From a virus: a stretch of 44,213 bases of DNA. The notes beneath the pieces were generated by a model. It did no database searches. It had not been told where the DNA came from and worked only from the letters and a program-made list of their open reading frames with translations. Both the position numbers and the translations under genes were made by a program. Where the stretch lies: positions 1-44,213 of IMG/VR virus record IMGVR_UViG_3300045988_036631. One strand, 5' to 3'. This document shows positions 2,340-43,780 of the stretch, piece by piece; within the stretch, counting starts at the first letter, position 1, and each line of letters begins with the position of its first letter.

Positions 2340-3149
2340 ATGAAAAGAATCGTTGCTCTGTTGGCTCTGATGTTTGCTCTTCTTCCCGTGCACGTCACGG
2401 CTGAGAACGAGATCGACCCGAAGGATTGCATACCGTTCCCGGCTGACTGTAAAAAAGCGGATGTCGCCATGGCTGCTCTGTATGCCGTTGATATCCCCAA
2501 CCCCCAGAATTACGAATGGAGTTCAAACACGGAAGATTTGCATTTCACGGAAGACGGAGTTTTTTCGCTCTTGGGTGAAAAAGGTACATTAACAGGCGTT
2601 CCGAAGGACGGAAGCGGAAAAACGATTAAAATTTCTGTGTCAGCCCCCATACCCTTTTTCAGCTCGAAGAATATCGTTGTCGATTCGCCGGAAGGCGAAG
2701 AATTGTTAGTCCGTACCGGCGGCGGATTTATTATGGTAGGCACAAGCGGCGACGACTGCTTCACCAGCGAAGAGATTGAGGGAAGAAAATATGGTTTTGC
2801 TGATGCGTACCGAATCATGCCCAAAAAAGAGGGCAAGGGCGCAATCATCTACACGATAAACATGAGCAAGAAATACAAGATCAACATCACGGTCAAAAAG
2901 TCCGCGCTCATGTCTGAAGAGGAACGGCAAGCCCTGATAGAAAAGGCCGGGGAGAACGCAAAAATTGTTATCGCGGAAAAGAACGTGAACGTCCGCGCTG
3001 ATGCGTCCGCTGATGCCGAGAAGGTCGGAAGCATCAAGGCCGGTGATGAAGTGATCGTCACCCAGCCGTACTATACGAAAAAGTGGCACCAGATTCTCTA
3101 TGACGGCGAGCTGTGCTATGTTTCGGCAAGCTATCTTAATGTCAAATAA
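2340..3149 (+). CDS. Secreted protein with C-terminal SH3b-like domain (moron)
   Basis: Signal peptide MKRIVALLALMFALLPVHVTA/ENE. C-terminus NVNVRADASADAEKVGSIKAGDEVIVTQ...WHQILYDGELCYVSASYL is SH3_3-like. Locally lower GC. Confidence 0.75.
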   Translation: MKRIVALLALMFALLPVHVTAENEIDPKDCIPFPADCKKADVAMAALYAVDIPNPQNYEWSSNTEDLHFTEDGVFSLLGEKGTLTGVPKDGSGKTIKISVSAPIPFFSSKNIVVDSPEGEELLVRTGGGFIMVGTSGDDCFTSEEIEGRKYGFADAYRIMPKKEGKGAIIYTINMSKKYKINITVKKSALMSEEERQALIEKAGENAKIVIAEKNVNVRADASADAEKVGSIKAGDEVIVTQPYYTKKWHQILYDGELCYVSASYLNVK

Positions 3150-3219
3150 GCAAAAATCCGCTACTAATCGCTTGAGATAAAAGCAAGCGTACAAAAAATC
3201 AAAATGGAGGCATTTAACC

Positions 3220-3609
3220 ATGAAAAAGAAGATTGCTATCGTATTGGCGGGCATGATGCTATCTGCCGGGGTTGCAATGGCCGACGTTGATCTAAAGAGC
3301 ATGTCCTTTGATGAGCTTGTCGATTTACAAAGTCAAATCCTCGAAGAAGCTGTAAGCCGTGAAGAATTTAAGTGCGTATCCGTCCCCGCTGGTGAATACA
3401 CCGTTGGTGTTGATATTCCGGCAGGAGACTATACTATTGCGAGCAACACAAAAAGTTCCATGGTAACGCTTTACGTGAACGGCTTTGAATCCGCATATTA
3501 TCTGACAAGCACAGACCCGGTAGTCGGCAAACTCTCCCTCGAAGATGGGGATATCGTCTCAACGTCCGGCACGTTGGATTTCTCCACCTATAAGGGGCTT
3601 GGTTTTTAA
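3220..3609 (+). CDS. Secreted small protein (moron), 129 aa
   Basis: Signal peptide MKKKIAIVLAGMMLSAGVAMA/DVD. Repeated GEYTVGVDIPAGDYTI motif. GGAGG RBS. Confidence 0.7.
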   Translation: MKKKIAIVLAGMMLSAGVAMADVDLKSMSFDELVDLQSQILEEAVSREEFKCVSVPAGEYTVGVDIPAGDYTIASNTKSSMVTLYVNGFESAYYLTSTDPVVGKLSLEDGDIVSTSGTLDFSTYKGLGF

Positions 3610-4049: not shown

Positions 4050-5159
4050 ATGGCAAAAGCAAAAAAGCTACCGTCCGGGAACTGGCGAACACAGGTTTAC
4101 CTCGGCAAGGATGCCGCCGGAAAGCCAATCGTTGAATCCTTCACCGCCTCGACCGCCCGCGAATCTGAGCGTCTCGCCGCCGTCGCTGCTGCCGATCACA
4201 AACGGAAGAAGAAGCAAACGCTGACGCTTGGTCAGGCAATGGACGAGTTTATAGACACGTGCAGGGTACAAGGCTATTCGCCGTCCACGCTGAGGGGATA
4301 TGTCACCATCCGCAAAAACAGCTTCCTGTCGCTGGTCAATGTGAAGCTCGATCAAATCACGCCCCGCGATGTGCAAAAGGCACTTGACGACCGAGCGCGG
4401 GCGCACACGCCGAAGACGGTCAGAAATGACTATTTCTTACTCAAAACGATTTTGGAAAAAAACGTTCCCGATCTACAGCTTAATGGAATCGTCCTCGCAA
4501 AGCTCAAGCGGAAAAAGAAGCAGCTCTTTTCCGAAAAGTGGGCGGGCGACGTTCTCCGCTACGTCGCGGAACGCTGGGAGACGGATTTTTACCTCTACTG
4601 CTGCTTCATCATCAGCGCGGGCTTGCGCCCCTCTGAGGCGTATGCTCTGACGTGGGGGGATTTGTCCGCGTCTCCCATTGACGCGCTGGATTCGAGCGGC
4701 AGGACGTACAGGATCGGCACAATCAACATTGACAAGGCGATCGTTCGCGGCGAAAAGGGGTTCCAGCCCAAAGGGACGAAAAGCGACGCGGGAGAGCGCG
4801 TCCTGCGCGTTGACTGGTCTTTCTTTGAAAACCTTTACGACGCAAAGCCACGAGGAAAAGACGACGAACAGGTTTTCCAGATGAAGCCCAGCCGCGTTAT
4901 TTACAGATGGGATATCACGCGCAAAGACCTAGGACTGCCGGAAACCATGCGCTTTTACGACCTGCGCCACTTCTTCGCAACGTCCGTCGCATACTCCGGC
5001 GCATCCGAGGAAGAACTTGCCCGCGTCATGGGTCATTCCACATCCGCTTTCTCCCATCAGGTGTACGTCGAGCTTTTCCGTGAACGGCAGGATGAAATCA
5101 ACGCCAAAATGGCGGCGGGAACAGCCGCCTTGTACGGGTCTGTTTCGGCTAAAAAATAG
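4050..5159 (+). CDS. int: Tyrosine recombinase / phage integrase
   Basis: C-terminal catalytic pattern RFYDLRHFFATSVAYSG...LARVMGHSTSAFSHQVYVE (R..HxxR..H..Y). N-terminal SAM-like arm. Adjacent to attP. Confidence 0.95.
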   Translation: MAKAKKLPSGNWRTQVYLGKDAAGKPIVESFTASTARESERLAAVAAADHKRKKKQTLTLGQAMDEFIDTCRVQGYSPSTLRGYVTIRKNSFLSLVNVKLDQITPRDVQKALDDRARAHTPKTVRNDYFLLKTILEKNVPDLQLNGIVLAKLKRKKKQLFSEKWAGDVLRYVAERWETDFYLYCCFIISAGLRPSEAYALTWGDLSASPIDALDSSGRTYRIGTINIDKAIVRGEKGFQPKGTKSDAGERVLRVDWSFFENLYDAKPRGKDDEQVFQMKPSRVIYRWDITRKDLGLPETMRFYDLRHFFATSVAYSGASEEELARVMGHSTSAFSHQVYVELFRERQDEINAKMAAGTAALYGSVSAKK

Positions 5160-27893: not shown

Positions 27894-28860
27894 TGTGCGC
27901 CTCCTTCCATCCCGCCCACTCCGCATAAGTCTTAAACGGTATTGTGTCGCGGGTGATGTTGTCGAGCCGCGTCTCATTTCGCGGCGGATATTTTGGATTG
28001 TACGACACGAGCGTACAGCGGCAGTTGTACACATTCGCGGGTCTTGCGTTCGGGTCGCCCGGACACATGATCTCGCCCAGCTCGCTCTGAAACGGCTTGT
28101 CTACGTCCACCCGCTGCCCGTCAAGCATAGCGTGGGAATGGCGCGTGTGGTTGTCCAGCGTCGCCCGCCACTCCTTTTGCAGCTTGATACCCAGCTTTGC
28201 CGCCTGATGATAGCTTTCAATGCGCCCTGCGTTCTGCGCGTAGGTCATCGCGGTTCTCGCGTGTCGCCTTGCGCTGGCCTCATTCGCCGTCGTCACACGC
28301 TGCAATCGCTTCACGACCGTCTCAAGCGGTTCGCCCTGAATGATGCCCTGCGTGATCTGCTGCGTGATCTGCATATGATTCCAGCGCTTGTCTGCTGGTA
28401 TATCCACCTTTGACGGCGGCAGAAGGTCTGGCTGGTCGCGGATAAGCTGCTTGACGGTTGATGCGTCGTATAGCTCAAAGCCCATGTTTATCCGTGCGCC
28501 CTTTTCAAGCATATAGCTCGACCAGTTGGCATTATAGGCAAACGCTTCCGGGGTCGTGTCGTTGATGATCTGCATAGCAAGCTCGTTGCTGTGCGTCAGC
28601 GTCTCCGTCAGGTTGGCAAGCATCTGTCGCCAGCGTTTCCCCTGAAACACTTGCCCTGCCAGCCAATCGCGATACGTCTCTTGCGTGATCTCTCCCGCTT
28701 CGAGCTGCGCATGATATTTTTTATCATCCCTGCGGAATTTCGCGATGAACTTACCCAGCTTGCGCTGGATATCAGCCGCCGCGTCGGTGTATACGTCGCG
28801 GATGCGCCGCTCTAGTTCTTCAATCTGCTTGTCAGTCCATTGAACCGCCTGATCTGTCAA
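27820..28860 (-). CDS. Head morphogenesis protein (SPP1 gp7 / Mu F family)
   Basis: RHARTAMTYAQNAGRIESY...WRATLDNHTRHSHAMLDGQRV...PGDPNARPANVYNCRCTL. Confidence 0.9.
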   Translation of the reverse strand: MTDQAVQWTDKQIEELERRIRDVYTDAAADIQRKLGKFIAKFRRDDKKYHAQLEAGEITQETYRDWLAGQVFQGKRWRQMLANLTETLTHSNELAMQIINDTTPEAFAYNANWSSYMLEKGARINMGFELYDASTVKQLIRDQPDLLPPSKVDIPADKRWNHMQITQQITQGIIQGEPLETVVKRLQRVTTANEASARRHARTAMTYAQNAGRIESYHQAAKLGIKLQKEWRATLDNHTRHSHAMLDGQRVDVDKPFQSELGEIMCPGDPNARPANVYNCRCTLVSYNPKYPPRNETRLDNITRDTIPFKTYAEWAGWKEAHNGGKPDRQQRGVSGRTGTRKGVGA

Positions 28861-30058
28861 GCGCCGTCACCCCCGCCGCGTTCGCATAAACCCGTTCTCT
28901 CATCAGTTTCCCGGAACCTTTCCCGCTGCTAAGTGATCGCTTGTCGCACTCAAAAACGCGTGTGAAGCGCTTGTCCTCCACCTTGTAACTGCTGATAAAT
29001 ACGGGAGTTTTCTGTTTCGCTGCCCAATTAAAAAAGGATTCGTGGTCGAATCCTTCATAAATTCCGCAATCTGTATCTTGATACGGAATATCTGCGTAAA
29101 TCACGCTATTTGGTGGAATTTTTACGTTTTCATAGCTTTCAAACGAGATTTCCAGCCTTTCCAGCCTTTGCAGCCTTTCCAGCCTTTCCAGCCTTTGCAG
29201 CCTTTCCAGCCTTTCCAGACTTTGCAGACTTTGCAGACTTTGCAGACTTTGCAGACTTTGCAGCCTTTGCCTGAGCCTGTACAATCCGACAAGCTCATTG
29301 TAATCGTCAGGAAGCGGCATAAATTCCTGCATACGTTGGTACATTTCCCGCGTCGGGAACTCCCATTGTGAGCGCCCGAAGTAATGCCCGGCCATCTGCG
29401 TTCCGAGACGACGCTGAACCTCGGCCTGCGTCAAGCCTGACGTTTTCAAGGCTTTCAGTAGATACGCCCTCAGCTCTTCCTCGTCTCTCTCGATATCTGC
29501 TTTCGCGTTTTTAATCAGTTCGTCAAGCTCTGCTGGGGAATATTTCTGATGTGAAAGCCACCACCGAATATATTTCTCCTTGTACTCGGCTTCATGCGCC
29601 AGAACGTCCGCGCGGCTTCCGTCTCCTTCGATTCCCATATTTTGCAGGAGGAATGTGTCACCAAAAACCCGCGCATAGTGCAGCGCTTTTTTCCATGGTT
29701 CTATTTCCTGCGCATATAGATAGTCGATCCCGTTATTCCCGAAGCTCCAACAGTATCTAACATACGGGTCAACATCTTTCAGCTTTTGAAACGTTTCTCG
29801 ATCAATCCAGCGCTTTTCATCCGCATACTCTCCGCATATTGCGCCCTTGAACAGTTTCAACGGCATTTCGCAAATGTCGTTCGCTATAATCCGCTCCCAC
29901 TTCGGGGCAAGGCCTTCACAGCTTTCGAGTGCCGCATGTGTTATGGCGCAACCGCCAGCGCAGATATCAATCAAAACATCAGCAGGCGGAAGAAAACTGA
30001 CTATTTTTCGCGCTATGCTGTTTTTGCTCCCTTTGTACGGTATGCCATAGCGCTTCAC
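28832..30058 (-). CDS. D12-class (Dam-like) N6-adenine DNA methyltransferase with internal tripeptide repeat
   Basis: N-terminus YKGSKNSIARKIVSFLPPADVLIDICAGGCAIT (AdoMet motif). C-terminus VIYADIPYQDT (DPPY-type motif). GTGA start overlaps the portal stop. Confidence 0.85.
   Translation of the reverse strand: MKRYGIPYKGSKNSIARKIVSFLPPADVLIDICAGGCAITHAALESCEGLAPKWERIIANDICEMPLKLFKGAICGEYADEKRWIDRETFQKLKDVDPYVRYCWSFGNNGIDYLYAQEIEPWKKALHYARVFGDTFLLQNMGIEGDGSRADVLAHEAEYKEKYIRWWLSHQKYSPAELDELIKNAKADIERDEEELRAYLLKALKTSGLTQAEVQRRLGTQMAGHYFGRSQWEFPTREMYQRMQEFMPLPDDYNELVGLYRLRQRLQSLQSLQSLQSLQSLERLERLQRLERLERLQRLERLEISFESYENVKIPPNSVIYADIPYQDTDCGIYEGFDHESFFNWAAKQKTPVFISSYKVEDKRFTRVFECDKRSLSSGKGSGKLMRERVYANAAGVTALDRSGGSMD
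29151..29267. repeat. 13 tandem 9-bp units (t[c/g]cag[c/a]ctt), in frame within the methylase gene
   Basis: Units counted from 29151. They encode (S/R)L(Q/E) x13: RLQSLQSLQSLQSLQSLERLERLQRLERLERLQRLERLE. Confidence 0.95.
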
Positions 30059-34489: not shown

Positions 34490-34518
34490 ATTATAGCGCT
34501 TTTTCGTATATGTGTCAA
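34490..34518 (-). promoter_or_regulatory. Perfect-consensus sigma70 promoter ahead of the packaging module
   Basis: Minus strand: TTGACA (34513-34518 rc), 17 nt spacer, TATAAT (34490-34495 rc), then GGTGGAGGTGATGGG-ATG. Confidence 0.8.
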
Positions 34519-39246: not shown

Positions 39247-39449
39247 TTTTTTCCCTCCCCTTGCCGTCTTTGAAACGTCCTCATGCAGGTGTACCGACAA
39301 AAATACTTACATTTTCCTTTTTTGTCAGTAATCTTATAGACATAGATCATCGGGTATGCCGTCACAAACTTAGTACCGCACACGGGGCAAGTTCTGGAGG
39401 TTAATACTTGGTCAAGCGCCCCGCGAGGCATTTTGCTTTTCCCGCTCAT
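39243..39449 (-). CDS. Small zinc-finger protein, 68 aa
   Basis: CPVCGTKF...CKYFCRYTC. Confidence 0.5.
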   Translation of the reverse strand: MSGKSKMPRGALDQVLTSRTCPVCGTKFVTAYPMIYVYKITDKKGKCKYFCRYTCMRTFQRRQGEGKK

Positions 39450-40228
39450 ATCGGCAGTCTCTCCTGTGTCGCTTTTGGCGCATACAAGTCGTGGAAAAAC
39501 CGCTGGCCTTTCCCGGTGATTAGCGGTGTTTTGTTGATCTGAATACCGCTGCTTCGGGAAACCGTACTCTCATGCACCCGCATCAGCCCCATATCCATGC
39601 TTTTCTGTGACGGAACGTTCCAGTTTCGGCCTTTTGAGTTCAGCCATTTGTCATTTCGCAGCCTTTCAAACAGCCGTCTTTCTCCGATATCTAGCCCCGC
39701 CTGATTCAGAATTTTGGCCAGCGTTCCGATTGAGATGCAGGTTTCTGCTTTCTCCACGGTTTCGGCAAACAGCACCTTCGGCGCGTCTGCTTTGATCTTT
39801 TCGTTCGCAGCCTCAAGCTGCTTGTTTCGCTCGGCAATCTTCCGCTGTGCAACAATCAGCGCGTTTGCCAGCAACTGGTCGTCGTCCATCGTCTCCTGTC
39901 CGGCGATATATCCGCCCGTCTTGCGGATCTCTGGAATAACCTCGTGAGTAATCCAGCGCTTGAAGGCTTTCGCTTCGGGCTTGCGGCTACCAAGAATCAA
40001 AGCGTAAAGCCCCGGTTCGTTGACGGCATTCACGGGAAGCCCGTTGCTCGCACCCTCGATTGAAACTAGGGTGCGTTCATCCTCATCCAAACGCTTAATA
40101 ACATCGCTGCTGTTCCCCAGTCCCAGCGCCCTGCACACATCCGCCGCCACAAACCACGGTTCACCTTCCAGTGTCACAGCGCGCACCGCGCCGAACTCAT
40201 CCTTGCGAAAAATCGTTACATCGTTCAT
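39446..40228 (-). CDS. Antirepressor: Bro-N domain plus KilAC/ANT C-terminal domain
   Basis: FGAVRAVTLEGEPWFVAADVCRALGL...EPGLYALILGSRKPEAKAFKRWITHEVIPEIRKTG. Confidence 0.85.
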   Translation of the reverse strand: MNDVTIFRKDEFGAVRAVTLEGEPWFVAADVCRALGLGNSSDVIKRLDEDERTLVSIEGASNGLPVNAVNEPGLYALILGSRKPEAKAFKRWITHEVIPEIRKTGGYIAGQETMDDDQLLANALIVAQRKIAERNKQLEAANEKIKADAPKVLFAETVEKAETCISIGTLAKILNQAGLDIGERRLFERLRNDKWLNSKGRNWNVPSQKSMDMGLMRVHESTVSRSSGIQINKTPLITGKGQRFFHDLYAPKATQERLPI

Positions 40229-40230
40229 GC

Positions 40231-41484
40231 TTAACCCCCTTGCATTTCCGTGAATCGCATCGTCGCGCCGTCAAAATACAGCGTAATCCTTCCACATCGA
40301 CCTCCCCGATTTTTGTCCAGAAACAGCTTCCTTTCCGGGTCATCCTTGTCGTTCGGCGCATGTAGCAGGAGTACCGCGTCCGCGTCCTGCTCAATCGAGC
40401 CGGATTCGCGCAGGTCTGACAGTTTCGGCTCGTCGTTCCGCTCGCTCGCGCGGTTGAGCTGTGATGCGGTCAAAACCGGGATTTTTAGCTCCATCGCAAG
40501 CGCCTTTAGCCCTCTTGTGACAACTCCGACTGCTTCCGCGCGGTTGTTTGTCTTTTGTCCTGCATCAAGCAGCTGCAAGTAATCAGCCACGATCAAATCA
40601 AGCCCGCCATGTGCTCGCGTCCTCAGTGCCATTCGGCGGATATCCTGCACGGTTCGCGCCCGTTCGCTGATGCAGAACCTCTCTGACGGGATTTCTGCAA
40701 AGCTGTCAGCGACTTTGATGATCTCATCTTCCGTCAGGTCGTGGCGTTCGATTTTGTCCACCGAGACGCCGCTTTTCTGTGCCACAACACGCCCGACGAC
40801 CTCGTCCGCGCCCATCTCGCAAGATACCAACAGGATTCTTCTGCCTGCGTCCAGCGCTCGAACGGCCATATGCAGCAGGAGCGCAGACTTGCCGACGGAA
40901 GGCCGTGCGCCGACAACGATCAACTTGCCGCCCGCAATCAGCAAGGATTGATCGAGCTTCGGAAACCCTGTCTTTGCGATGGGTTCAACCGCTCCACTCG
41001 TGAGCCGTGTATAAAAGCCGCAAAGCGCGCCTGTGCCGCTGATAATGTCTCCGTCGTCTGTTTGTCCGCCAAGTTCGTTCAAGCGCACCACGGCGCCGTT
41101 AAGCAGTTCTGACGTGGATATCTCGCCATCGTTCGCGCTCTTGACTGTATCCAGACACGTCTTGATAAGCGCTTTCCGCATTGCCGCTTCCCGGATGTTC
41201 CGTGCCTGCTGTTCGGCAAGCGCCGTTGTGACGGTTTCCGTGGCGACGACGATAGCCTGTTCAAGGTCGTCGTCAGAAATCACGCCTTCAAGCGTCGGGA
41301 TATCGCATGGACGGCCTTGCCTCTCAAGCGCAAGCGCGGCCTCAAAAATTCGGCGGCAGAACGGGATTGTGAACCATTCGGCTTTAAGCCCGGAATCGCT
41401 TGCCTTTGCGTCGCCCTTGATGATTGCGCCGCAGAATTCGCGCTCAGAGATCTCTTTCGTGAGACTTTGGTACGGATCGTCCAT
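40231..41484 (-). CDS. Replicative DNA helicase (DnaB family)
   Basis: Walker A GARPSVGKSALLL. DYLQLL, SQLNRASE and RESGSIEQDADAV motifs. Confidence 0.95.
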   Translation of the reverse strand: MDDPYQSLTKEISEREFCGAIIKGDAKASDSGLKAEWFTIPFCRRIFEAALALERQGRPCDIPTLEGVISDDDLEQAIVVATETVTTALAEQQARNIREAAMRKALIKTCLDTVKSANDGEISTSELLNGAVVRLNELGGQTDDGDIISGTGALCGFYTRLTSGAVEPIAKTGFPKLDQSLLIAGGKLIVVGARPSVGKSALLLHMAVRALDAGRRILLVSCEMGADEVVGRVVAQKSGVSVDKIERHDLTEDEIIKVADSFAEIPSERFCISERARTVQDIRRMALRTRAHGGLDLIVADYLQLLDAGQKTNNRAEAVGVVTRGLKALAMELKIPVLTASQLNRASERNDEPKLSDLRESGSIEQDADAVLLLHAPNDKDDPERKLFLDKNRGGRCGRITLYFDGATMRFTEMQGG

Positions 41485-42217
41485 AACTCATCCCTCCCTT
41501 GCTGTCAGGTGGCTTGTCCGTCCATGTGTATCCTCGCTCTTTCTCCTTGCGAAGAATGCCCTCGACATACCGCCAACATCGGCTTTTTTCTGTCGCTCCT
41601 TGAGTTTTGTTTATGGCTTTCAGCAGATTTTTGGCTCCGTATTCAGCCCTGAGTCTGTCCATCGCGTCAAAGTCGCCCGAAGCACTGGCGGGTAAACCCA
41701 TGCGCTTTGCAGCAGCCTCCACGTCTGCCTGTTCTTCCCGCATTCGCCGCAGTTCGTCGTCCGTCACGTCGTCGTAGGGGTTTGGGGTTACGTAACCACC
41801 ACCAATATTCTTTTCTTGTTCTTTTACTTGTTCTTGTTCTTGTATATATGCGTTTTGCTTGACGTTGCTTTCGTCTGCTTCCGGTTGCTTGGCTTTGCTT
41901 GACTTTGCTTGGCTTTGCTTCAATGTGCTTGCGTTTGCTTCCGTCTGCTTGACGTTGCTTTCGTCTGCTTCCGGTTGCTTGGCGCTTCCGCCTTTTTTCC
42001 CGCTTGCTTTCTTTGCTTCCAAGGATTCAGCGCACTGATCGATTTTAAATTGAAGCGTGTCCCAGACATACCATTCCGGCGCGTTCTCGCCAAACGTCGG
42101 CAACTCGCCACGGTAGGCATAGGCCATCATGGCCATAAAAAGCCGTCCGCGCTGTGCGTCATCATATCGTTTGAGAAGGACTTCGATGTCCGGGAAAACC
42201 TTCAGATAATCCAGCAT
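41444..42217 (-). CDS. Replisome organizer / replication initiator (DnaD-like C-terminus) containing the origin repeats
   Basis: N-terminus MLDYLKVFPDIEVLLKRYDDAQRGRLFMAMMAY. Repeated KQPEADESNVKQ. Precedes the DnaB gene. Confidence 0.75.
   Translation of the reverse strand: MLDYLKVFPDIEVLLKRYDDAQRGRLFMAMMAYAYRGELPTFGENAPEWYVWDTLQFKIDQCAESLEAKKASGKKGGSAKQPEADESNVKQTEANASTLKQSQAKSSKAKQPEADESNVKQNAYIQEQEQVKEQEKNIGGGYVTPNPYDDVTDDELRRMREEQADVEAAAKRMGLPASASGDFDAMDRLRAEYGAKNLLKAINKTQGATEKSRCWRYVEGILRKEKERGYTWTDKPPDSKGGMSYGRSVPKSHERDL
41851..41980. repeat. 13 consecutive 10-bp units each ending TGCTT (AAGCA on the coding strand); putative ori iterons
   Basis: cgttttgctt gacgttgctt tcgtctgctt ccggttgctt ggctttgctt ... 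Includes a 33-bp exact direct repeat at 41861-41893 and 41951-41983. Flanked by a T-rich/TATATA stretch at 41806-41850. Confidence 0.85.
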
Positions 42218-42245
42218 TCTTTTTCCCCTTTCTCTTTAAAGTAAA

Positions 42246-42383
42246 TGGCGGCAAGCCCCAGAATTGAACCGGGCGCGTGGGCAAGGTGCTTCGCGTTAAT
42301 TTTGTATGAGGAGGGAAGAACAAGAAGAAACCTTGACGAATAGGGGGGGGTGTTGCACCCGCGCGATGCCTTCCATGCTTGCC
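42246..42383 (-). other. tRNA-like module: canonical T-arm plus 7-bp acceptor closure plus GCCA, in a 138-nt element; not a standard tRNA
   Basis: Minus strand: GGCAAGC...(about 100 nt)...CCCGG-TTCAATT-CTGGG-GCTTGCC-G-CCA. No convincing D or anticodon arm could be folded by eye. Confidence 0.25.
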
Positions 42384-42428
42384 ATAAGTGCCGCCGTTTT
42401 GCCCCGGCGGCTAGGCCGTCTGTGAAAC

Positions 42429-42634
42429 GTCTTTTATTTGCCGTCTTTCCGGCTGCCAGAAAAAAATGGTGTGCGGTCTTTCCCGCCGTCAGGATGTGAA
42501 AAAACAGTTTTGTCTTTCCGCCGTCTCTCCAGCTGTCAATTTTGTTGATCGTCTTTCCGATCTGTCGATGCTAAAGGACACGTTCTTCGTCTTTCCGAAG
42601 CGCCAGAAATGAAATGTGCGGTGCCCGTCTTTCC
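42429..42634. repeat. Array of six GTCTTTCC motifs, plus degenerate copies, spaced 33-39 bp in a non-coding region
   Basis: Copies start at 42443, 42476, 42512, 42551, 42589 and 42627. Variants GTCTTTTA at 42429 and GTCTCTCC at 42523. The motif falls in different frames of the only local ORF. Confidence 0.8.
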
Positions 42635-42853
42635 GAGCAGCCAGTATGATCATAATTTGCCCTTGCTCCGCCATCCTCCCTTCTGTTGGAGCTTTCACCG
42701 TTTCAAGCAGTTCCTTCGTGCTTGACTTACCCAAACTTCTTCTGTTCGGCGCGCTGCGGTATCGACCCGTCCCTTCTTCTTGGCGCTGCTTGCCGCCTTG
42801 AAGCTGCTCTCCTGAGCTGCGCACCATGCGCAAGGGGTTAGCCCTTGCGGTTT

Positions 42854-43780
42854 TTATTGTTCTTTGTCTTCGGGCACGTTCTCCGGCGCGTCATGCGCCG
42901 TTCCAGTGTCTGTCACATCTACGATGCCATCAGGCAGAGGGGATTCATCATCGACCAGGCCTGCGCTTATATCGTGCGCCGCTTTCAGCGCGGCGGGGGA
43001 TGCGCTTTTGTAATCGATGGACATAACGCCCCAGCGTCCGAGCAAGCGGCGCATGACGGTTTTCCGCGCCATAGCGTCCCAGTCGTCGCGCCAGCCTTTG
43101 CCCTGGTTCTTGCCCTTGCGGTTCTTCGCCTCGTGCGCCTCGATCTGCTGGACACTCATGTACACCGTCTTTTCCGTGCCGTTTACAAGGCGATAATAGC
43201 CGACATAGCCGATGATCGGCAGCTTTTCGCGCTCCGTCTCGTCCTGTTCCCAGCGGAACTCAAAGTCTTCGGTCAATCTATCGCAGGAGATCAGCTCCCC
43301 CTCGCGCACGTCCATCACGTTCAGCCGCTTGTATGCCCCGGTTCTGAGCGCGAGCTGAATCATGCCCTTGTAACCGAGGATAAACTGCGCTTCCGGAATT
43401 TTAATCCAGCTTCCGTCATCCGCTTTTTTGCTGTTGTTGAACGGCACGATGTAGGCAAAGCCGAGCGCGTTATCAACCGGAAGGTCGTAACTTGCGGCTT
43501 TGAGCGCCGCCTGAATGACCGTCTGCGGGGCTTGGCGAACCGCCGCCGTCAGATTTGCATCCGCATTGCAAAGCGTGATGACCGCCGAGATAAATTGCGG
43601 CGCTCGATCGCCCAGCAGATCGTTCAGGCGTTTTTTGTAGCCCTCGGAGTCGAACATGCCGTTCAGAATTTGGTTGACGGTTCGCGCTGCAACGGGCGCG
43701 GTCGTGGCCGCCGCGACGGGTGCGCGGCTGGCGGTTGCGTTTGTGATAATTCCCGCCGTGTTTCTTGCCTGTCTTTCCAT
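42854..43780 (-). CDS. recT: RecT-family single-strand annealing recombinase
   Basis: ...FAYIVPFNN...AQFILGYKGMIQLALRTGAYKRLNVMDVREGE...YVGYYRLVNG... AAGGAGG RBS before ATG 43780. Confidence 0.9.
   Translation of the reverse strand: MERQARNTAGIITNATASRAPVAAATTAPVAARTVNQILNGMFDSEGYKKRLNDLLGDRAPQFISAVITLCNADANLTAAVRQAPQTVIQAALKAASYDLPVDNALGFAYIVPFNNSKKADDGSWIKIPEAQFILGYKGMIQLALRTGAYKRLNVMDVREGELISCDRLTEDFEFRWEQDETEREKLPIIGYVGYYRLVNGTEKTVYMSVQQIEAHEAKNRKGKNQGKGWRDDWDAMARKTVMRRLLGRWGVMSIDYKSASPAALKAAHDISAGLVDDESPLPDGIVDVTDTGTAHDAPENVPEDKEQ

Follow-up and report, generated by a model that had tools for sequence, protein, structure and literature searches.

A predicted structured RNA element with GAAAGA-hexaloop hairpins and two tRNA-like structures in a phage early operon

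GOLLD and ROOL are richly structured RNAs of several hundred nucleotides that are found in phages and prophages and are repeatedly linked to tRNAs, which in GOLLD sometimes lie inside the linker (PMC12286853, PMC5737381). UG27 arrays occur in phages of Bacteroidota and Bacillota and consist of units of ~135-167 nt, structurally conserved and sequence-diverse, with the motifs AUCN7UANAG and UUYA; copy number varies, units being gained or lost between close relatives, and the systems need a reverse transcriptase (RT) and two accessory proteins (10.64898/2026.09.22.753630).

Here we describe a locus that resembles both in part. It lies in a 44,213-nt stretch of viral DNA (IMG/VR record IMGVR_UViG_3300045988_036631, analysed over its full length and referred to below as the window), within an early operon that is read on the minus strand in the order recE/recT, organizer, dnaB. 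The RecT gene (42854-43780, minus strand) and the replisome organizer gene (41444-42217, minus strand; DUF6291 / phrog_2562) are separated by a 636-bp island, and the DnaB gene (40231-41484, minus strand) follows the organizer. The antirepressor (ant) gene is downstream of the island in the same operon. A sequence-only reading had picked out this island as non-coding, named its neighbours as recT and a replisome organizer, and noted in it six copies of GTCTTTCC; all three observations proved right.

The hairpin array

We found no conserved open reading frame in the island. The longest ORF of the 34 homologues varies in strand, frame and length (65-145 aa), and the 114-aa ORF and the small plus-strand ORFs of the island gave 0 Pfam or PHROG matches, and on these grounds a coding role was rejected. 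The six exact copies of GTCTTTCC on the plus strand begin at 42443, 42476, 42512, 42551, 42589 and 42627. Counting both strands of the window, there are 10 matches against 1.72 +/- 1.16 expected, and 10 or more were reached in 0/100 shuffles. Read on the minus strand, the motif is G-GAAAGA-C, a closing G-C pair around a GAAAGA hexaloop. The sequence-only reading had worked on the antisense strand and therefore missed the hairpins and both tRNA-like domains described below.

Five exact copies and one GAGAGA variant cap stems of 4-6 bp; the stem sequences all differ, complementarity is kept throughout, and each hairpin unit is preceded by UGRCR. In the order of the minus-strand RNA these are H1 (UGCUCG-GAAAGA-CGGGCA, 42622..42639, motif copy 6 at 42627), H2 (CUUCG-GAAAGA-CGAAG, 42585..42600, copy 5 at 42589), H3 (GAUCG-GAAAGA-CGAUC, 42547..42562, copy 4 at 42551), H4 (GCUG-GAGAGA-CGGC, 42520..42533), H5 (GCGG-GAAAGA-CCGC, 42473..42486, copy 2 at 42476) and H6 (GCCG-GAAAGA-CGGC, 42440..42453, copy 1 at 42443), all on the minus strand. 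H4 corresponds to GTCTCTCC, one of the degenerate copies to which the earlier reading had drawn attention, and folds into a hairpin of its own, with the loop GAGAGA. The remaining exact 8-mer, copy 3 at 42512, forms no hairpin (GGCGGAAAGACAAAAC, 42507..42522, minus strand); it shares bases with the 3' arm of H4, and most close relatives carry the mutated form AGAAAGAC. Elsewhere in the window there are about 40 other GAAAGA sites, and a stem of at least 4 bp is present at only one. H1 and H6 are the copies kept in every clade.

The unit period is 33-39 nt and the flanks differ from unit to unit. Some inter-motif segments had been described as related to each other, and this relatedness is real (family D5, 76% identity). 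With conservation confined to 8-10 nt of each unit, the island registers no tandem repeat in TRF.

Covariation was assessed on 82 distinct hairpin units from at least nine phage groups. The covariation score was 0.413, compared with 0.139 in shuffled sets (reached in 0/500) and at most 0.118 in slid controls. At pair 10-21 the units have CG 36 times, UA 30 times, UG 11 times and GC 4 times, with one unpaired, and relatives L005, L017 and L049 carry H2 in the compensatory form CUUUG...CAAAG. Set against simple conservation, a comparison that had been proposed for this array, the flanks thus behave as stems. The earlier suggestion that the repeat acts at the nucleic-acid level was correct.

Chimeric hairpins are found in L006, L010 and L088, and from these sequences array copy number appears to change by recombination within the loop; recombination between loops would account for the range of one to six hairpins.

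Several kinds of repeat array and loop motif were compared with the units and set aside. CRISPR or solitary repeats (Racr) have constant repeats of at least 23 nt with unique spacers between them, as against a constant part of 8-10 nt here with stems that differ between units. By inspection against consensus sequences, the unit has no equivalents of G8/A9 and G12 of the hammerhead core, does not follow the A1/G4 rule of the ANTAR dual hexaloop, has no GGA in its loop as a CsrA site would, lacks the U33 of an anticodon-loop mimic, differs in base order from the sarcin-ricin loop and h45, and has no -12 or -10 partner for a sigma-54 or sigma-70 promoter. The hairpin unit also occurs in Bacteroidota-type phages, and to our knowledge Bacteroidota hosts are without CsrA.

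We also considered whether the array could be a template or antitoxin-type RNA, that is, a UG27-like non-coding RNA that a phage reverse transcriptase copies into cDNA hairpins, or a mimic of a type III antitoxin of the ToxI kind. Like UG27 systems, it is a variable phage array of structurally conserved, sequence-diverse hairpins, and its 33-39 nt period is close to that of ToxI (34-36 nt). Yet the UG27 motif is absent from the island, the two matches elsewhere in the window are at chance level, and a Pfam scan of 27 window ORFs (small ORFs in part) revealed no reverse transcriptase, so we rejected a UG27 array. The type III antitoxins ToxI, cptI and antiQ have near-identical direct repeats of 34-48 nt, which the units are not and which TRF does not find; the gene that follows the island is the DUF6291 organizer rather than a ToxN/AbiQ-like gene. 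On these comparisons the template or antitoxin reading appears largely refuted.

Two tRNA-like structures

The island appears to be the template of an untranslated, highly structured RNA segment of ~600 nt on the minus strand, read with the early operon, in which the order would be a GC hairpin, a first tRNA-like structure (TLS-1), a spacer that carries an SD-like tract, the six stem-loops, a second GC hairpin and TLS-2. The 5' GC hairpin, GCAAGGG-CUAAC-CCCUUGC (42830..42848, minus strand), lies 4 nt (GCAU) upstream of TLS-1. Relatives carry it in the compensatory forms UGCGGGA/UCCCGCA, GCCGGGG/CCCGGC and GCAGGGG/CCCUGC, whichever gene is upstream. The sequence-only reading had correctly seen a hairpin after the recT stop, and we correct its position and loop (GCAAGGG-GTTAG-CCCTTGC on the plus strand, 42830-42848, loop of 5 nt). 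Its T-run, which might suggest a plus-strand terminator, is just the recT stop region and is missing in relatives with other upstream genes; a better reading of the structure is as the hairpin at the 5' extreme of the minus-strand RNA, conserved and covarying.

TLS-1 (42748..42825, minus strand) is a tRNA-like cloverleaf with acceptor GGUGCGC/GCGCGCC, D-arm GCUC-AGGA-GAGC, long arm CUUC-AA-GGCG-[GCAAGCAG]-CGCC-AA-GAAG and T-arm GACGG-GUCGAUA-CCGCA, which has two mismatches in this phage where most relatives have GGCGG/CCGCC. Its single-sequence MFE structure is the four-way cloverleaf (z = -2.63), the arms fold alike in four sequence-divergent clades, and the acceptor and T-stem covary (for example GGCGGUC/GACCGCC and GGUGG/CCACC). 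There is no CCA end, T-loop position 54 is G or C and not U, and the arm at the anticodon place is interrupted, with 10 positions and an 8-nt loop. Between TLS-1 and the array, the spacer contains an SD-like purine tract, GAAGGGAGGA (42674..42683, minus strand; GAAAGGAGGA in clade B, from the alignment), without a usable start codon; it might serve as a 5' stabiliser.

Downstream of the array is a GC hairpin, GCCGCCG-GGGCAAAA-CGGCGGC (42390..42411, minus strand), 6 nt (ACUUAU) upstream of TLS-2. Its 7 bp are 100% paired across 12 sequences, with compensatory change in 3 pairs. TLS-2 (42246..42383, minus strand) has acceptor GGCAAGC/GCUUGCC followed by G and CCA, a mini D-arm AUG-GAAGG-CAU and a T-arm CCCGG-UUCAAUU-CUGGG. 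A stem of 8-9 bp closes a variable insertion of ~75 nt, which holds a C8 run at 42343-42350 (the G8 run of the plus strand, as had been noted) and a pyrimidine/CCUCC tract at 42308-42332. The thermodynamic signal of TLS-2 by itself is weak (z = -1.04). Taken together, TLS-2, its upstream hairpin and H6 comprise 41 pairs with 97.6% of cells paired (RNAalifold, pair counts), and 11 of these pairs are compensatory, compared with 2.4 in shuffled alignments (0/500) and 0-2 in slid controls. When both strands of the window were scanned strictly for an acceptor plus T-arm, TLS-2 was the sole match. The discriminator and CCA vary between relatives (GCCA, ACCA, UCCA, ACAA), and the organizer RBS and ATG (42215..42231, minus strand) begin ~15 nt past the TLS-2 CCA end.

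Neither structure is a canonical tRNA. TLS-2 has the canonical acceptor and T geometry (7-bp acceptor, 5-bp T-stem, 7-nt UUCRANY loop), which TLS-1 shares except for its G/C-UCGAUA loop; a 5-bp anticodon stem with a 7-nt loop, U33 and an anticodon is absent from both. The Rfam tRNA (RF00005) and tmRNA models recognise neither TLS at E <= 10. Default ARAGORN finds no tRNA in the island and ARAGORN -m no tmRNA, and at -ps70 the program detects TLS-1 only. Across homologues, these alignments and pair counts show compensatory substitutions that keep the hairpins and both tRNA-like folds intact. Two further ideas about TLS-2 were dropped: a duplex search of its insertion against the early operon, for an antisense RNA, gave non-specific purine-tract matches only, and a kissing interaction of the GAAAGA loops with its pyrimidine tract is not conserved, by eye, in relatives.

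At both TLS, U(-1)/G(+1) is conserved and a hairpin stands 4-6 nt upstream. We propose that the island is an RNA-level element, probably excised by tRNA-processing enzymes, in which the hairpins are recognition sites for a factor, and we give this reading a probability of roughly 0.5. In this model, which we infer from the sequence comparisons, the polycistronic transcript would be cut by host tRNA-processing enzymes, with RNase P acting 5' of each TLS and RNase Z, 3' trimming or CCA enzymes at the 3' side. The GC hairpin 4-6 nt before each cut would shield the 3' end of the upstream product, so that the recombination mRNA would be parted from the replication mRNA and an array RNA of ~330 nt set free. 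The invariant loops could then act as multivalent sites for a trans-acting factor encoded away from the array, probably a conserved host protein or RNP, which would be titrated or recruited. Transcription of the segment, its cleavage by RNase P and the release of the array RNA are all predicted steps.

The hairpin unit in other phages

The sequence-only reading had suggested a search of related phages and of Rfam. The architecture is kept, with 1-6 hairpins, in 34 distinct homologues of 427-638 nt, a family of modest diversity (~5 clades, mostly from one metagenome). Their upstream genes differ, and downstream of the island there is one of two different replication-initiator genes. Against Rfam the island gave 0 matches at E <= 10, its 2-kb context and three more loci (the latter at E <= 5) nothing relevant, and 14 related loci, at the gathering score, true tRNAs only. 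Annotated phages in GenBank/INPHARED have no DNA match to the island, L225 or L211, and no tblastn match to the organizer protein. Neither this hairpin nor the tRNA-mimic arrangement turned up in our literature searches.

The hairpin unit (UGRCR, stem, GAAAGA, stem, A; the 5' flank more fully YUGRCR) is found in at least eight unrelated phage groups, strictly in sense orientation and tied to the direction of transcription. It occurs in early-operon leaders, upstream of scaffold genes, in Mu-like transposase leaders and within islands of true tRNAs. In L242 two units separate tRNA-His from tRNA-Ile, and the 8-tRNA island of L319 has five, ~30 nt upstream of tRNA-Met. Arrays of the Mu-like group (L234, L238, L061) and of L259 are bordered by tRNA-like modules, and many arrays, such as those of scaffold-gene leaders, have no tRNA-like flank. 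These comparisons show the unit to be a portable, sense-oriented module in many unrelated phages, repeatedly beside tRNAs or tRNA mimics. In the metagenome exact-pattern scan, true arrays made up 19 of the 120 matches listed, too few for such counts to be informative there, and the pattern GCACCTTGCCC-N3-7-CCCGGTTC, which is too short for the genome-contig collection, gave chance matches only (spot checks, blastn).

Since many arrays are without a tRNA-like flank, the hairpin cannot in general work through tRNA-enzyme processing. ORFs within +/- 4 kb were clustered and no protein family is common to the neighbourhoods of the different array groups; any partner is therefore not co-encoded. A broader proposal, possible but well short of even odds, is that the GAAAGA-hexaloop hairpin is a new, widespread and portable phage RNA module. 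Host tRNA-processing enzymes would typically release it as a small multivalent RNA, either out of a tRNA island or from the stretch between two tRNA mimics, and it would serve to sequester or to recruit a conserved host RNA-binding factor. Candidate types of factor for a decoy or recruiter are a ribonuclease, a transcription-elongation factor and an RNA-sensing defence protein.

The positions of the units also invite a rather unlikely explanation, that of a nut/put-like antitermination or anti-Rho element in which UGRCR takes the place of boxA and the purine-loop hairpin that of boxB. RNA polymerase, acted on co-transcriptionally by the element itself or through a small factor of phage or host origin, would then read across long untranslated stretches and past downstream terminators to reach the replication genes. 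Compared with the lambda boxB loops (GAAAA, GAAGA), the GAAAGA hexaloop has one extra base, and every unit is sense-oriented and lies in an untranslated place. Some follow promoters directly in early-operon leaders, as in the Mu-like group and in L225, where a terminator-like hairpin comes next; those of the window and L259 precede replication genes, as nutR does; others open the scaffold/capsid block or sit in tRNA islands, whose transcripts would be open to Rho. However, in the window the minus strand downstream of the island has no convincing intrinsic terminator, and the arrays of L211 and L212 lie past the local terminator, not before it. Known nut sites have a single boxB with a pentaloop, 1-6 copies would be unusual for nut/put, and no N-like gene was identified, such proteins being possibly too small or divergent to detect.

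An unlikely reading is that the element only punctuates or stabilises mRNA, the hairpins and tRNA mimics setting cuts and protected ends with no trans-acting array RNA. Endonucleolytic cuts, for example within the flank (UG/RCR), would give neighbouring gene blocks different stabilities or expression. In ~23 viral contigs the array lies at the border from portal/Prp to scaffold/capsid, where expression must jump, and ends 3-8 nt before the scaffold-gene RBS; in the window a hairpin stands ahead of both predicted RNase P sites, and the ORF-less SD-like tract resembles Firmicute 5' stabilisers. But a stabiliser needs no invariant loop, closing pair and 5' flank across phages of different phyla, and TLS-2 would sever the array from the organizer mRNA in the window.

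That the island is selfish or decaying sequence, made of degenerate tRNA genes and a REP-like miniature hairpin repeat spreading through phage intergenic DNA with no phage function, is very unlikely. Copy number does vary, there are chimeric and decayed copies (L006, L010 and L088; 42512), the module sits in many unrelated contexts, and the TLS-1 T-stem is weakened in this phage. All helices, those of both TLS included, are nevertheless upheld across clades by compensatory changes, H1 and H6 persist in every clade, sense orientation is strict, and no transposase or RAYT-like gene is associated.

The contexts bear equally on DNA-level roles, several of which had been put forward for this island. 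Duplex GGAAAGAC sites to which the organizer or an HTH protein would bind, for iteron function, handcuffing, partition or titration, might be expected from the position of the array, which in L259 and the window family adjoins a replication initiator gene, and from 8 invariant bases per unit at a spacing of roughly 3.5 helical turns. Iterons are conserved repeats of ~17-22 bp, as against 8-10 nt conserved per unit here with flanks that covary as a stem: beyond G-GAAAGA-C it is the pairing that is kept. The units have a single orientation that follows transcription, and they occur in Mu-like transposase leaders and, where a replication role is unexpected, in scaffold-gene leaders and tRNA islands. 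Two unrelated initiator types accompany the island, which is absent from the organizer relative L031. The organizer gene already contains typical tandem iterons of its own (repeats of 10/20/30 bp by TRF), from which the array is distinct, as the sequence-only reading had held. We therefore regard a DNA-level function as highly improbable; among the roles listed earlier, iterons, handcuffing, partition and a landing pad are unsupported, whereas a structured RNA and a protein-titration array were rightly on that list.

If our preferred reading of an excised RNA element is right, a gap left blank by annotation pipelines would hold an uncatalogued RNA family, and a phage operon would encode non-canonical tRNA mimics, a case of transcript punctuation by RNase P and RNase Z in a bacterial virus. 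An invariant-loop hairpin would have spread among phages of Bacillota-, Bacteroidota- and Pseudomonadota-like hosts, often in tRNA islands. The partner of the loop could reveal a general phage strategy of host-factor titration or recruitment, or of antitermination, and could clarify why GOLLD and ROOL RNAs adjoin phage tRNAs. A hairpin this small and well defined should lend itself readily to pull-downs and loop mutation.

Comparison with known systems

Phage RNAs carved from longer transcripts offer one parallel. As in P1/P7 c4 and P4 CI, the proposed small RNA would be released by tRNA-processing enzymes, and the same processing concept applies to the tRNA-miRNA units of MHV68 and to the E. 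coli 3'ETS-leuZ sponge. In P1 immI the antirepressor gene (ant) is downstream in the same operon, as it is at this island. Unlike C4 and c4-a1b1, to which the island shows no sequence or Rfam similarity, the array showed no complementary target repeats (there is one sense-strand GUCUUUCC, at chance level).

TLS-2 resembles the tRNA-like domain of tmRNA in its 7-bp acceptor, canonical T-arm (UUCRAWU), GG in a reduced D-loop and CCA end, and in the long helix that takes the place of the anticodon arm. It differs in its third acceptor pair, which is C-G with no G3-U70, and in its variable discriminator; there is no conserved tag ORF and the internal part is only ~75 nt.

With lambda nut sites the units share a linear motif directly 5' of a small hairpin, a purine-rich loop that may be GNRA-like, and a sense orientation in untranslated parts of the early operon, upstream of replication genes. 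They differ in having a hexaloop instead of a pentaloop, in occurring in 1-6 tandem copies, in a UGRCR that is unlike boxA (CGCUCUUA-like), in the N-like protein, of which none was identified, and in their Clostridia-like or Bacteroidota-like hosts; we know of N-type systems only in lambdoid phages of enterobacteria.

Variable stems with a fixed terminal-loop sequence, in tandem, are also a feature of TwoAYGGAY RNA (RF01731) and of the CsrB/RsmZ sponges, a likeness that suggests protein binding. Unlike these, the island has the loop GAAAGA with no GGA, no basal stem and no Rfam match. As in UG27, the array consists of variable-copy hairpins with conserved structure and diverse sequence; unlike UG27, its units are of 33-39 nt, and the AUCN7UANAG motif, RT and accessory proteins are absent.

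The island is most like GOLLD and ROOL in being a phage-encoded, structured RNA of several hundred nucleotides whose array lies between tRNA mimics here and in tRNA islands elsewhere. It matches neither Rfam model at E <= 10, and in place of one ornate fold it is built of modules, simple hairpins that vary in number, with non-canonical mimics as its tRNA parts. Should the decoy or recruiter proposal hold, the 600-nt element of the window would be the most elaborate known version of the module, and would represent a third class of tRNA-associated phage RNA beside GOLLD and ROOL.

The hairpin array of the island

The 636-bp gap at 42218-42853, here the island, is flanked on the minus strand by the genes for RecT (42854-43780) and for a DUF6291/replication-initiator-type organizer (41444-42217), with a DnaB helicase gene on the same strand beside the organizer. 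A BRO-N/KilAC antirepressor (39446-40228, minus) lies downstream of DnaB in the same operon. The phage encodes a tyrosine integrase (4050-5159, plus) and is therefore temperate; it also encodes an SPP1-type portal and a large terminase, and an ORF of the head-gene block (28832-30058, minus) contains a D12-class adenine methyltransferase domain. Between the terminase/structural block and the early genes, at 34490-34518 (minus), a promoter matches the sigma-70 consensus perfectly (TTGACA-17-TATAAT, 12/12); it may be the late or middle promoter.

The sequence-only reading had described the island as non-coding, with six exact copies of GTCTTTCC in one orientation. Both descriptions hold: the ORFs local to the island have no Pfam or PHROGs match and none is conserved across the island versions of relatives, and all six copies are found on the plus strand at 42443, 42476, 42512, 42551, 42589 and 42627. 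On both strands of the 44-kb window the motif occurs 10 times versus 1.72 expected, a count reached by no shuffle. The array is also, as was claimed, distinct from the TTGCTTGACGTTGCTTGCGTCTGCTTCCGG-like tandem repeats of period 10/20/30 bp (4-11 copies) within the organizer coding sequence at 41849-41981. TRF finds no tandem repeats in the island; those organizer-gene repeats are the more conventional phage origin/iteron candidate.

Read on the minus (sense) strand, the motif is G-GAAAGA-C. Five of the six exact copies cap stems of 4-6 bp, all different (UGCUCG/CGGGCA, CUUCG/CGAAG, GAUCG/CGAUC, GCUG/CGGC, GCGG/CCGC and GCCG/CGGC are the six stems, H1-H6 denoting the hairpins 5' to 3' from 42622-42639 to 42440-42453). 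The degenerate copies mentioned earlier include a GAGAGA copy that itself caps a stem, and it is an exact copy, that at 42512, which is unpaired and has no stem. Elsewhere in the window GAAAGA occurs at roughly 40 sites, of which only one has a stem of at least 4 bp. When the sense RNA is folded over its full 621 nt, the minimum-energy structure contains the hexaloop hairpins (z = -3.8).

An organizer protein query returned 32 IMG/VR loci (58-99% identity), and DNA-pattern scans supplied further relatives beyond these. Together they hold 34 distinct island versions of 427-638 nt with 1-6 hairpins each, a family of modest diversity. The outer hairpins H1 and H6 are kept in every clade and H2-H5 are an expansion confined to the window's clade, with a compensatory H2 form, CUUUG/CAAAG, in L005, L017 and L049. 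Chimeric hairpins in the window family, for example CUUCG-GAAAGA-CGAUC (L006/L086, L010/L062, L088), mark deletions and show that units recombine with one another at the conserved loop, with loss of copies. The position upstream of the initiator gene is constant, whether the gene before the island is that for RecT or another, and holds for initiators of two unrelated types; one organizer relative, L031, has no island. No consistent promoter was found upstream of the island in relatives.

tRNA-like domains flanking the array

The alignment showed CCCGG-UUCAAUU-CUGGG-GCUUGCC-G-CCA directly upstream of the organizer RBS, which is the T-arm, 3' acceptor strand, discriminator and CCA end of a tRNA-like domain, TLS-2 (42246-42383, minus), whose acceptor is completed by the 5' strand GGCAAGC some 125 nt farther upstream. 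RNAalifold on 12 diverse sequences gave a tmRNA-TLD-like layout. The acceptor stem has 7-8 bp; the D-like stem, of 3 bp, has GG in its loop and in 4 sequences exchanges G-C for A-U; an interrupted stem of 8 bp closes a variable insertion rich in pyrimidines; and the T-arm completes the layout. By pair counting, 97.6% of cells are paired and both sides have changed in 11 pairs, against a shuffle value of 2.4 (0/500) and values of 0-2 for slid controls; in L029 the acceptor is GGCAGAC/GUCUGCC in place of GGCAAGC/GCUUGCC. TLS-2 was the sole match in a strict acceptor plus T-arm scan of both strands of the entire window.

The second cloverleaf, TLS-1 (42748-42825, minus), is at the 5' end of the island RNA. 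Its acceptor is GGUGCGC/GCGCGCC and its D-arm GCUC-AGGA-GAGC; the long arm is interrupted and has a loop of 8 nt, and the stem of the T-arm, GGCGG-(G/C)UCGAUA-CCGCC, has two mismatches in the window phage. Folding the single sequence gives precisely this four-way junction as the minimum-energy structure (z = -2.63), the arm keeps one fold in four clades despite unrelated arm sequences, and the acceptor and T-stems covary. In both domains position -1 is U and position +1 is G, and a covarying GC hairpin stands 4-6 nt before each. ARAGORN at default settings and Rfam found nothing at either domain, and ARAGORN at a 70% threshold detected TLS-1; neither is a canonical tRNA or tmRNA.

The anti-SD-like pyrimidine tract UUCUUCCCUCCUC of TLS-2 (42308-42332, minus) is variable in sequence and constant in composition in all clades, and the spacer holds an SD-like GAAGGGAGGA (42674-42683, minus) without a start codon. 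No pairing partner was established for either tract.

The hairpin unit in other phages

The exact pattern CGGAAAGACG-N18-45-CGGAAAGACG matched 79 IMG/VR loci, and outside the window family the unit is carried by at least 8 unrelated groups with 2-6 units each. In a huge metagenome collection the counts from an exact-pattern scan are mostly chance, with 19 true arrays in 120 among the matches listed. The unit comprises YUGRCR, a 3-6 bp stem of any sequence, GAAAGA (at times GAGAGA), the complementary stem and A-rich sequence. Its stems, for which the sequence-only reading had wanted covariation weighed against simple conservation, covary: over 82 distinct units all Watson-Crick pair types occur, and the score is 0.413 versus 0.139 in shuffles (0/500) and at most 0.118 in slid controls, the pair adjoining the closing pair being partly fixed by the search pattern and the outer pairs being free. 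A separate repeat family in L239 (IMG/VR 3300011443_000002, 3000-3600) has constant arms, GUGUCG...CGACUGA, and a varying 6-nt loop (GAAAGA, GCGGGA, GUUUUA and others), the reverse of the GAAAGA-unit pattern.

Arrays read in the sense direction and are found 18-270 nt ahead of genes. They precede replication initiators (the window family; L259, phrog_270), lie in the early-operon leader of transposable Mu-like phages whose promoters are Bacteroidota-style (L061, L214, L234, L238; transposase phrog_310), lead a RecE-like exonuclease operon (L225) and, in about 23 contigs, immediately precede the RBS of scaffold-type genes (L211, L212, L229, L230, L215 group). No protein family is common to the neighbourhoods of the different array groups. 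Because the stems covary and the units are sense-oriented in such varied contexts, the iteron, partition and titration roles proposed earlier at the DNA level are poorly supported. The scaffold-type genes have an L27-like N-terminus (LNLQFFA or LQLFAEG type) and are often preceded by a Prp-like cysteine protease gene. This context favors a pure processing and stabilizer module; against that reading, the invariance of loop and flank points to specific recognition. Arrays at these genes (L211, L212, L229, L230, L215/L217/L223 group) have 2-6 units, with 3-bp stems in the L215 group, and end 3-8 nt before the RBS.

True tRNAs can also adjoin the arrays: L242 has two units between tRNA-His and tRNA-Ile (3010-3080), and L319 has five (1100-1240) inside an 8-tRNA island, ending about 30 nt before tRNA-Met. 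A tRNA-like acceptor/T-arm module directly follows the array in Mu-like L234, L238 and L061, and is absent from that position in their relatives L214, L235, L247 and L261; in L259 a 53-nt acceptor plus T-arm mini-mimic lies upstream. Across loci, then, what stays constant is the array; tRNAs or mimics often lie beside it but need not. L319 also has, at about 830-940, a tRNA-like sequence with a ~40-nt insertion that ARAGORN does not call. In L061 (2090-2600), L234 and L238 the early leader, with 3-6 GAAAGA hairpins, lies between an XRE-type repressor gene and the transposase; the module after the hairpins is GGGGAGU...GAGGG-UUCGAAU-CCCUC-ACUCCCC-A and the promoter is TAnnTTTG, Bacteroidota-style. 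A further upstream tRNA-like module in L061 encloses a strong SD and a 15-codon mini-ORF.

These positions in leaders, at pre-replication sites and in tRNA islands, together with the boxB-like GAAAGA loop, would also suit a nut/put-like antitermination or anti-Rho signal; however, the window has no downstream terminator that we could find, and neither boxA nor an N-like protein was found.

Proposed function and known systems

We assign a probability of about 0.9 to the island being an RNA-type (formally, single-stranded nucleic-acid) structured sense-strand element, in which a variable array of loop-conserved hairpins lies between two tRNA mimics. Transcription of the early operon would run through the segment, RNase P and 3' tRNA-processing enzymes would cleave the transcript at the mimics, and the upstream product of each cleavage would be shielded by the hairpin lying shortly before the site. 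We give this predicted processing an even chance. An array RNA of about 330 nt would thereby be released, its invariant loops bound by a factor encoded away from the array; that it acts in trans as a decoy or recruiter is a tentative suggestion.

The comparison with Rfam proposed in the sequence-only reading yields no family for the island in Rfam 15, nor any match to the hairpin or mimic arrangement, and we found no description of either in annotated phage genomes or in the searchable literature. In phages of Bacteroidota and Bacillota, UG27 reverse transcriptases are reported to copy variable arrays of hairpin RNAs (recent preprint, 10.64898/2026.09.22.753630). Those arrays differ from ours in unit size and motifs, and the scanned window ORFs yielded no reverse transcriptase. 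The GOLLD and ROOL RNAs have a tRNA-adjacent genomic habit (PMC12286853, PMC5737381), and the hairpin arrays described here resemble them in their frequent tRNA neighborhood.
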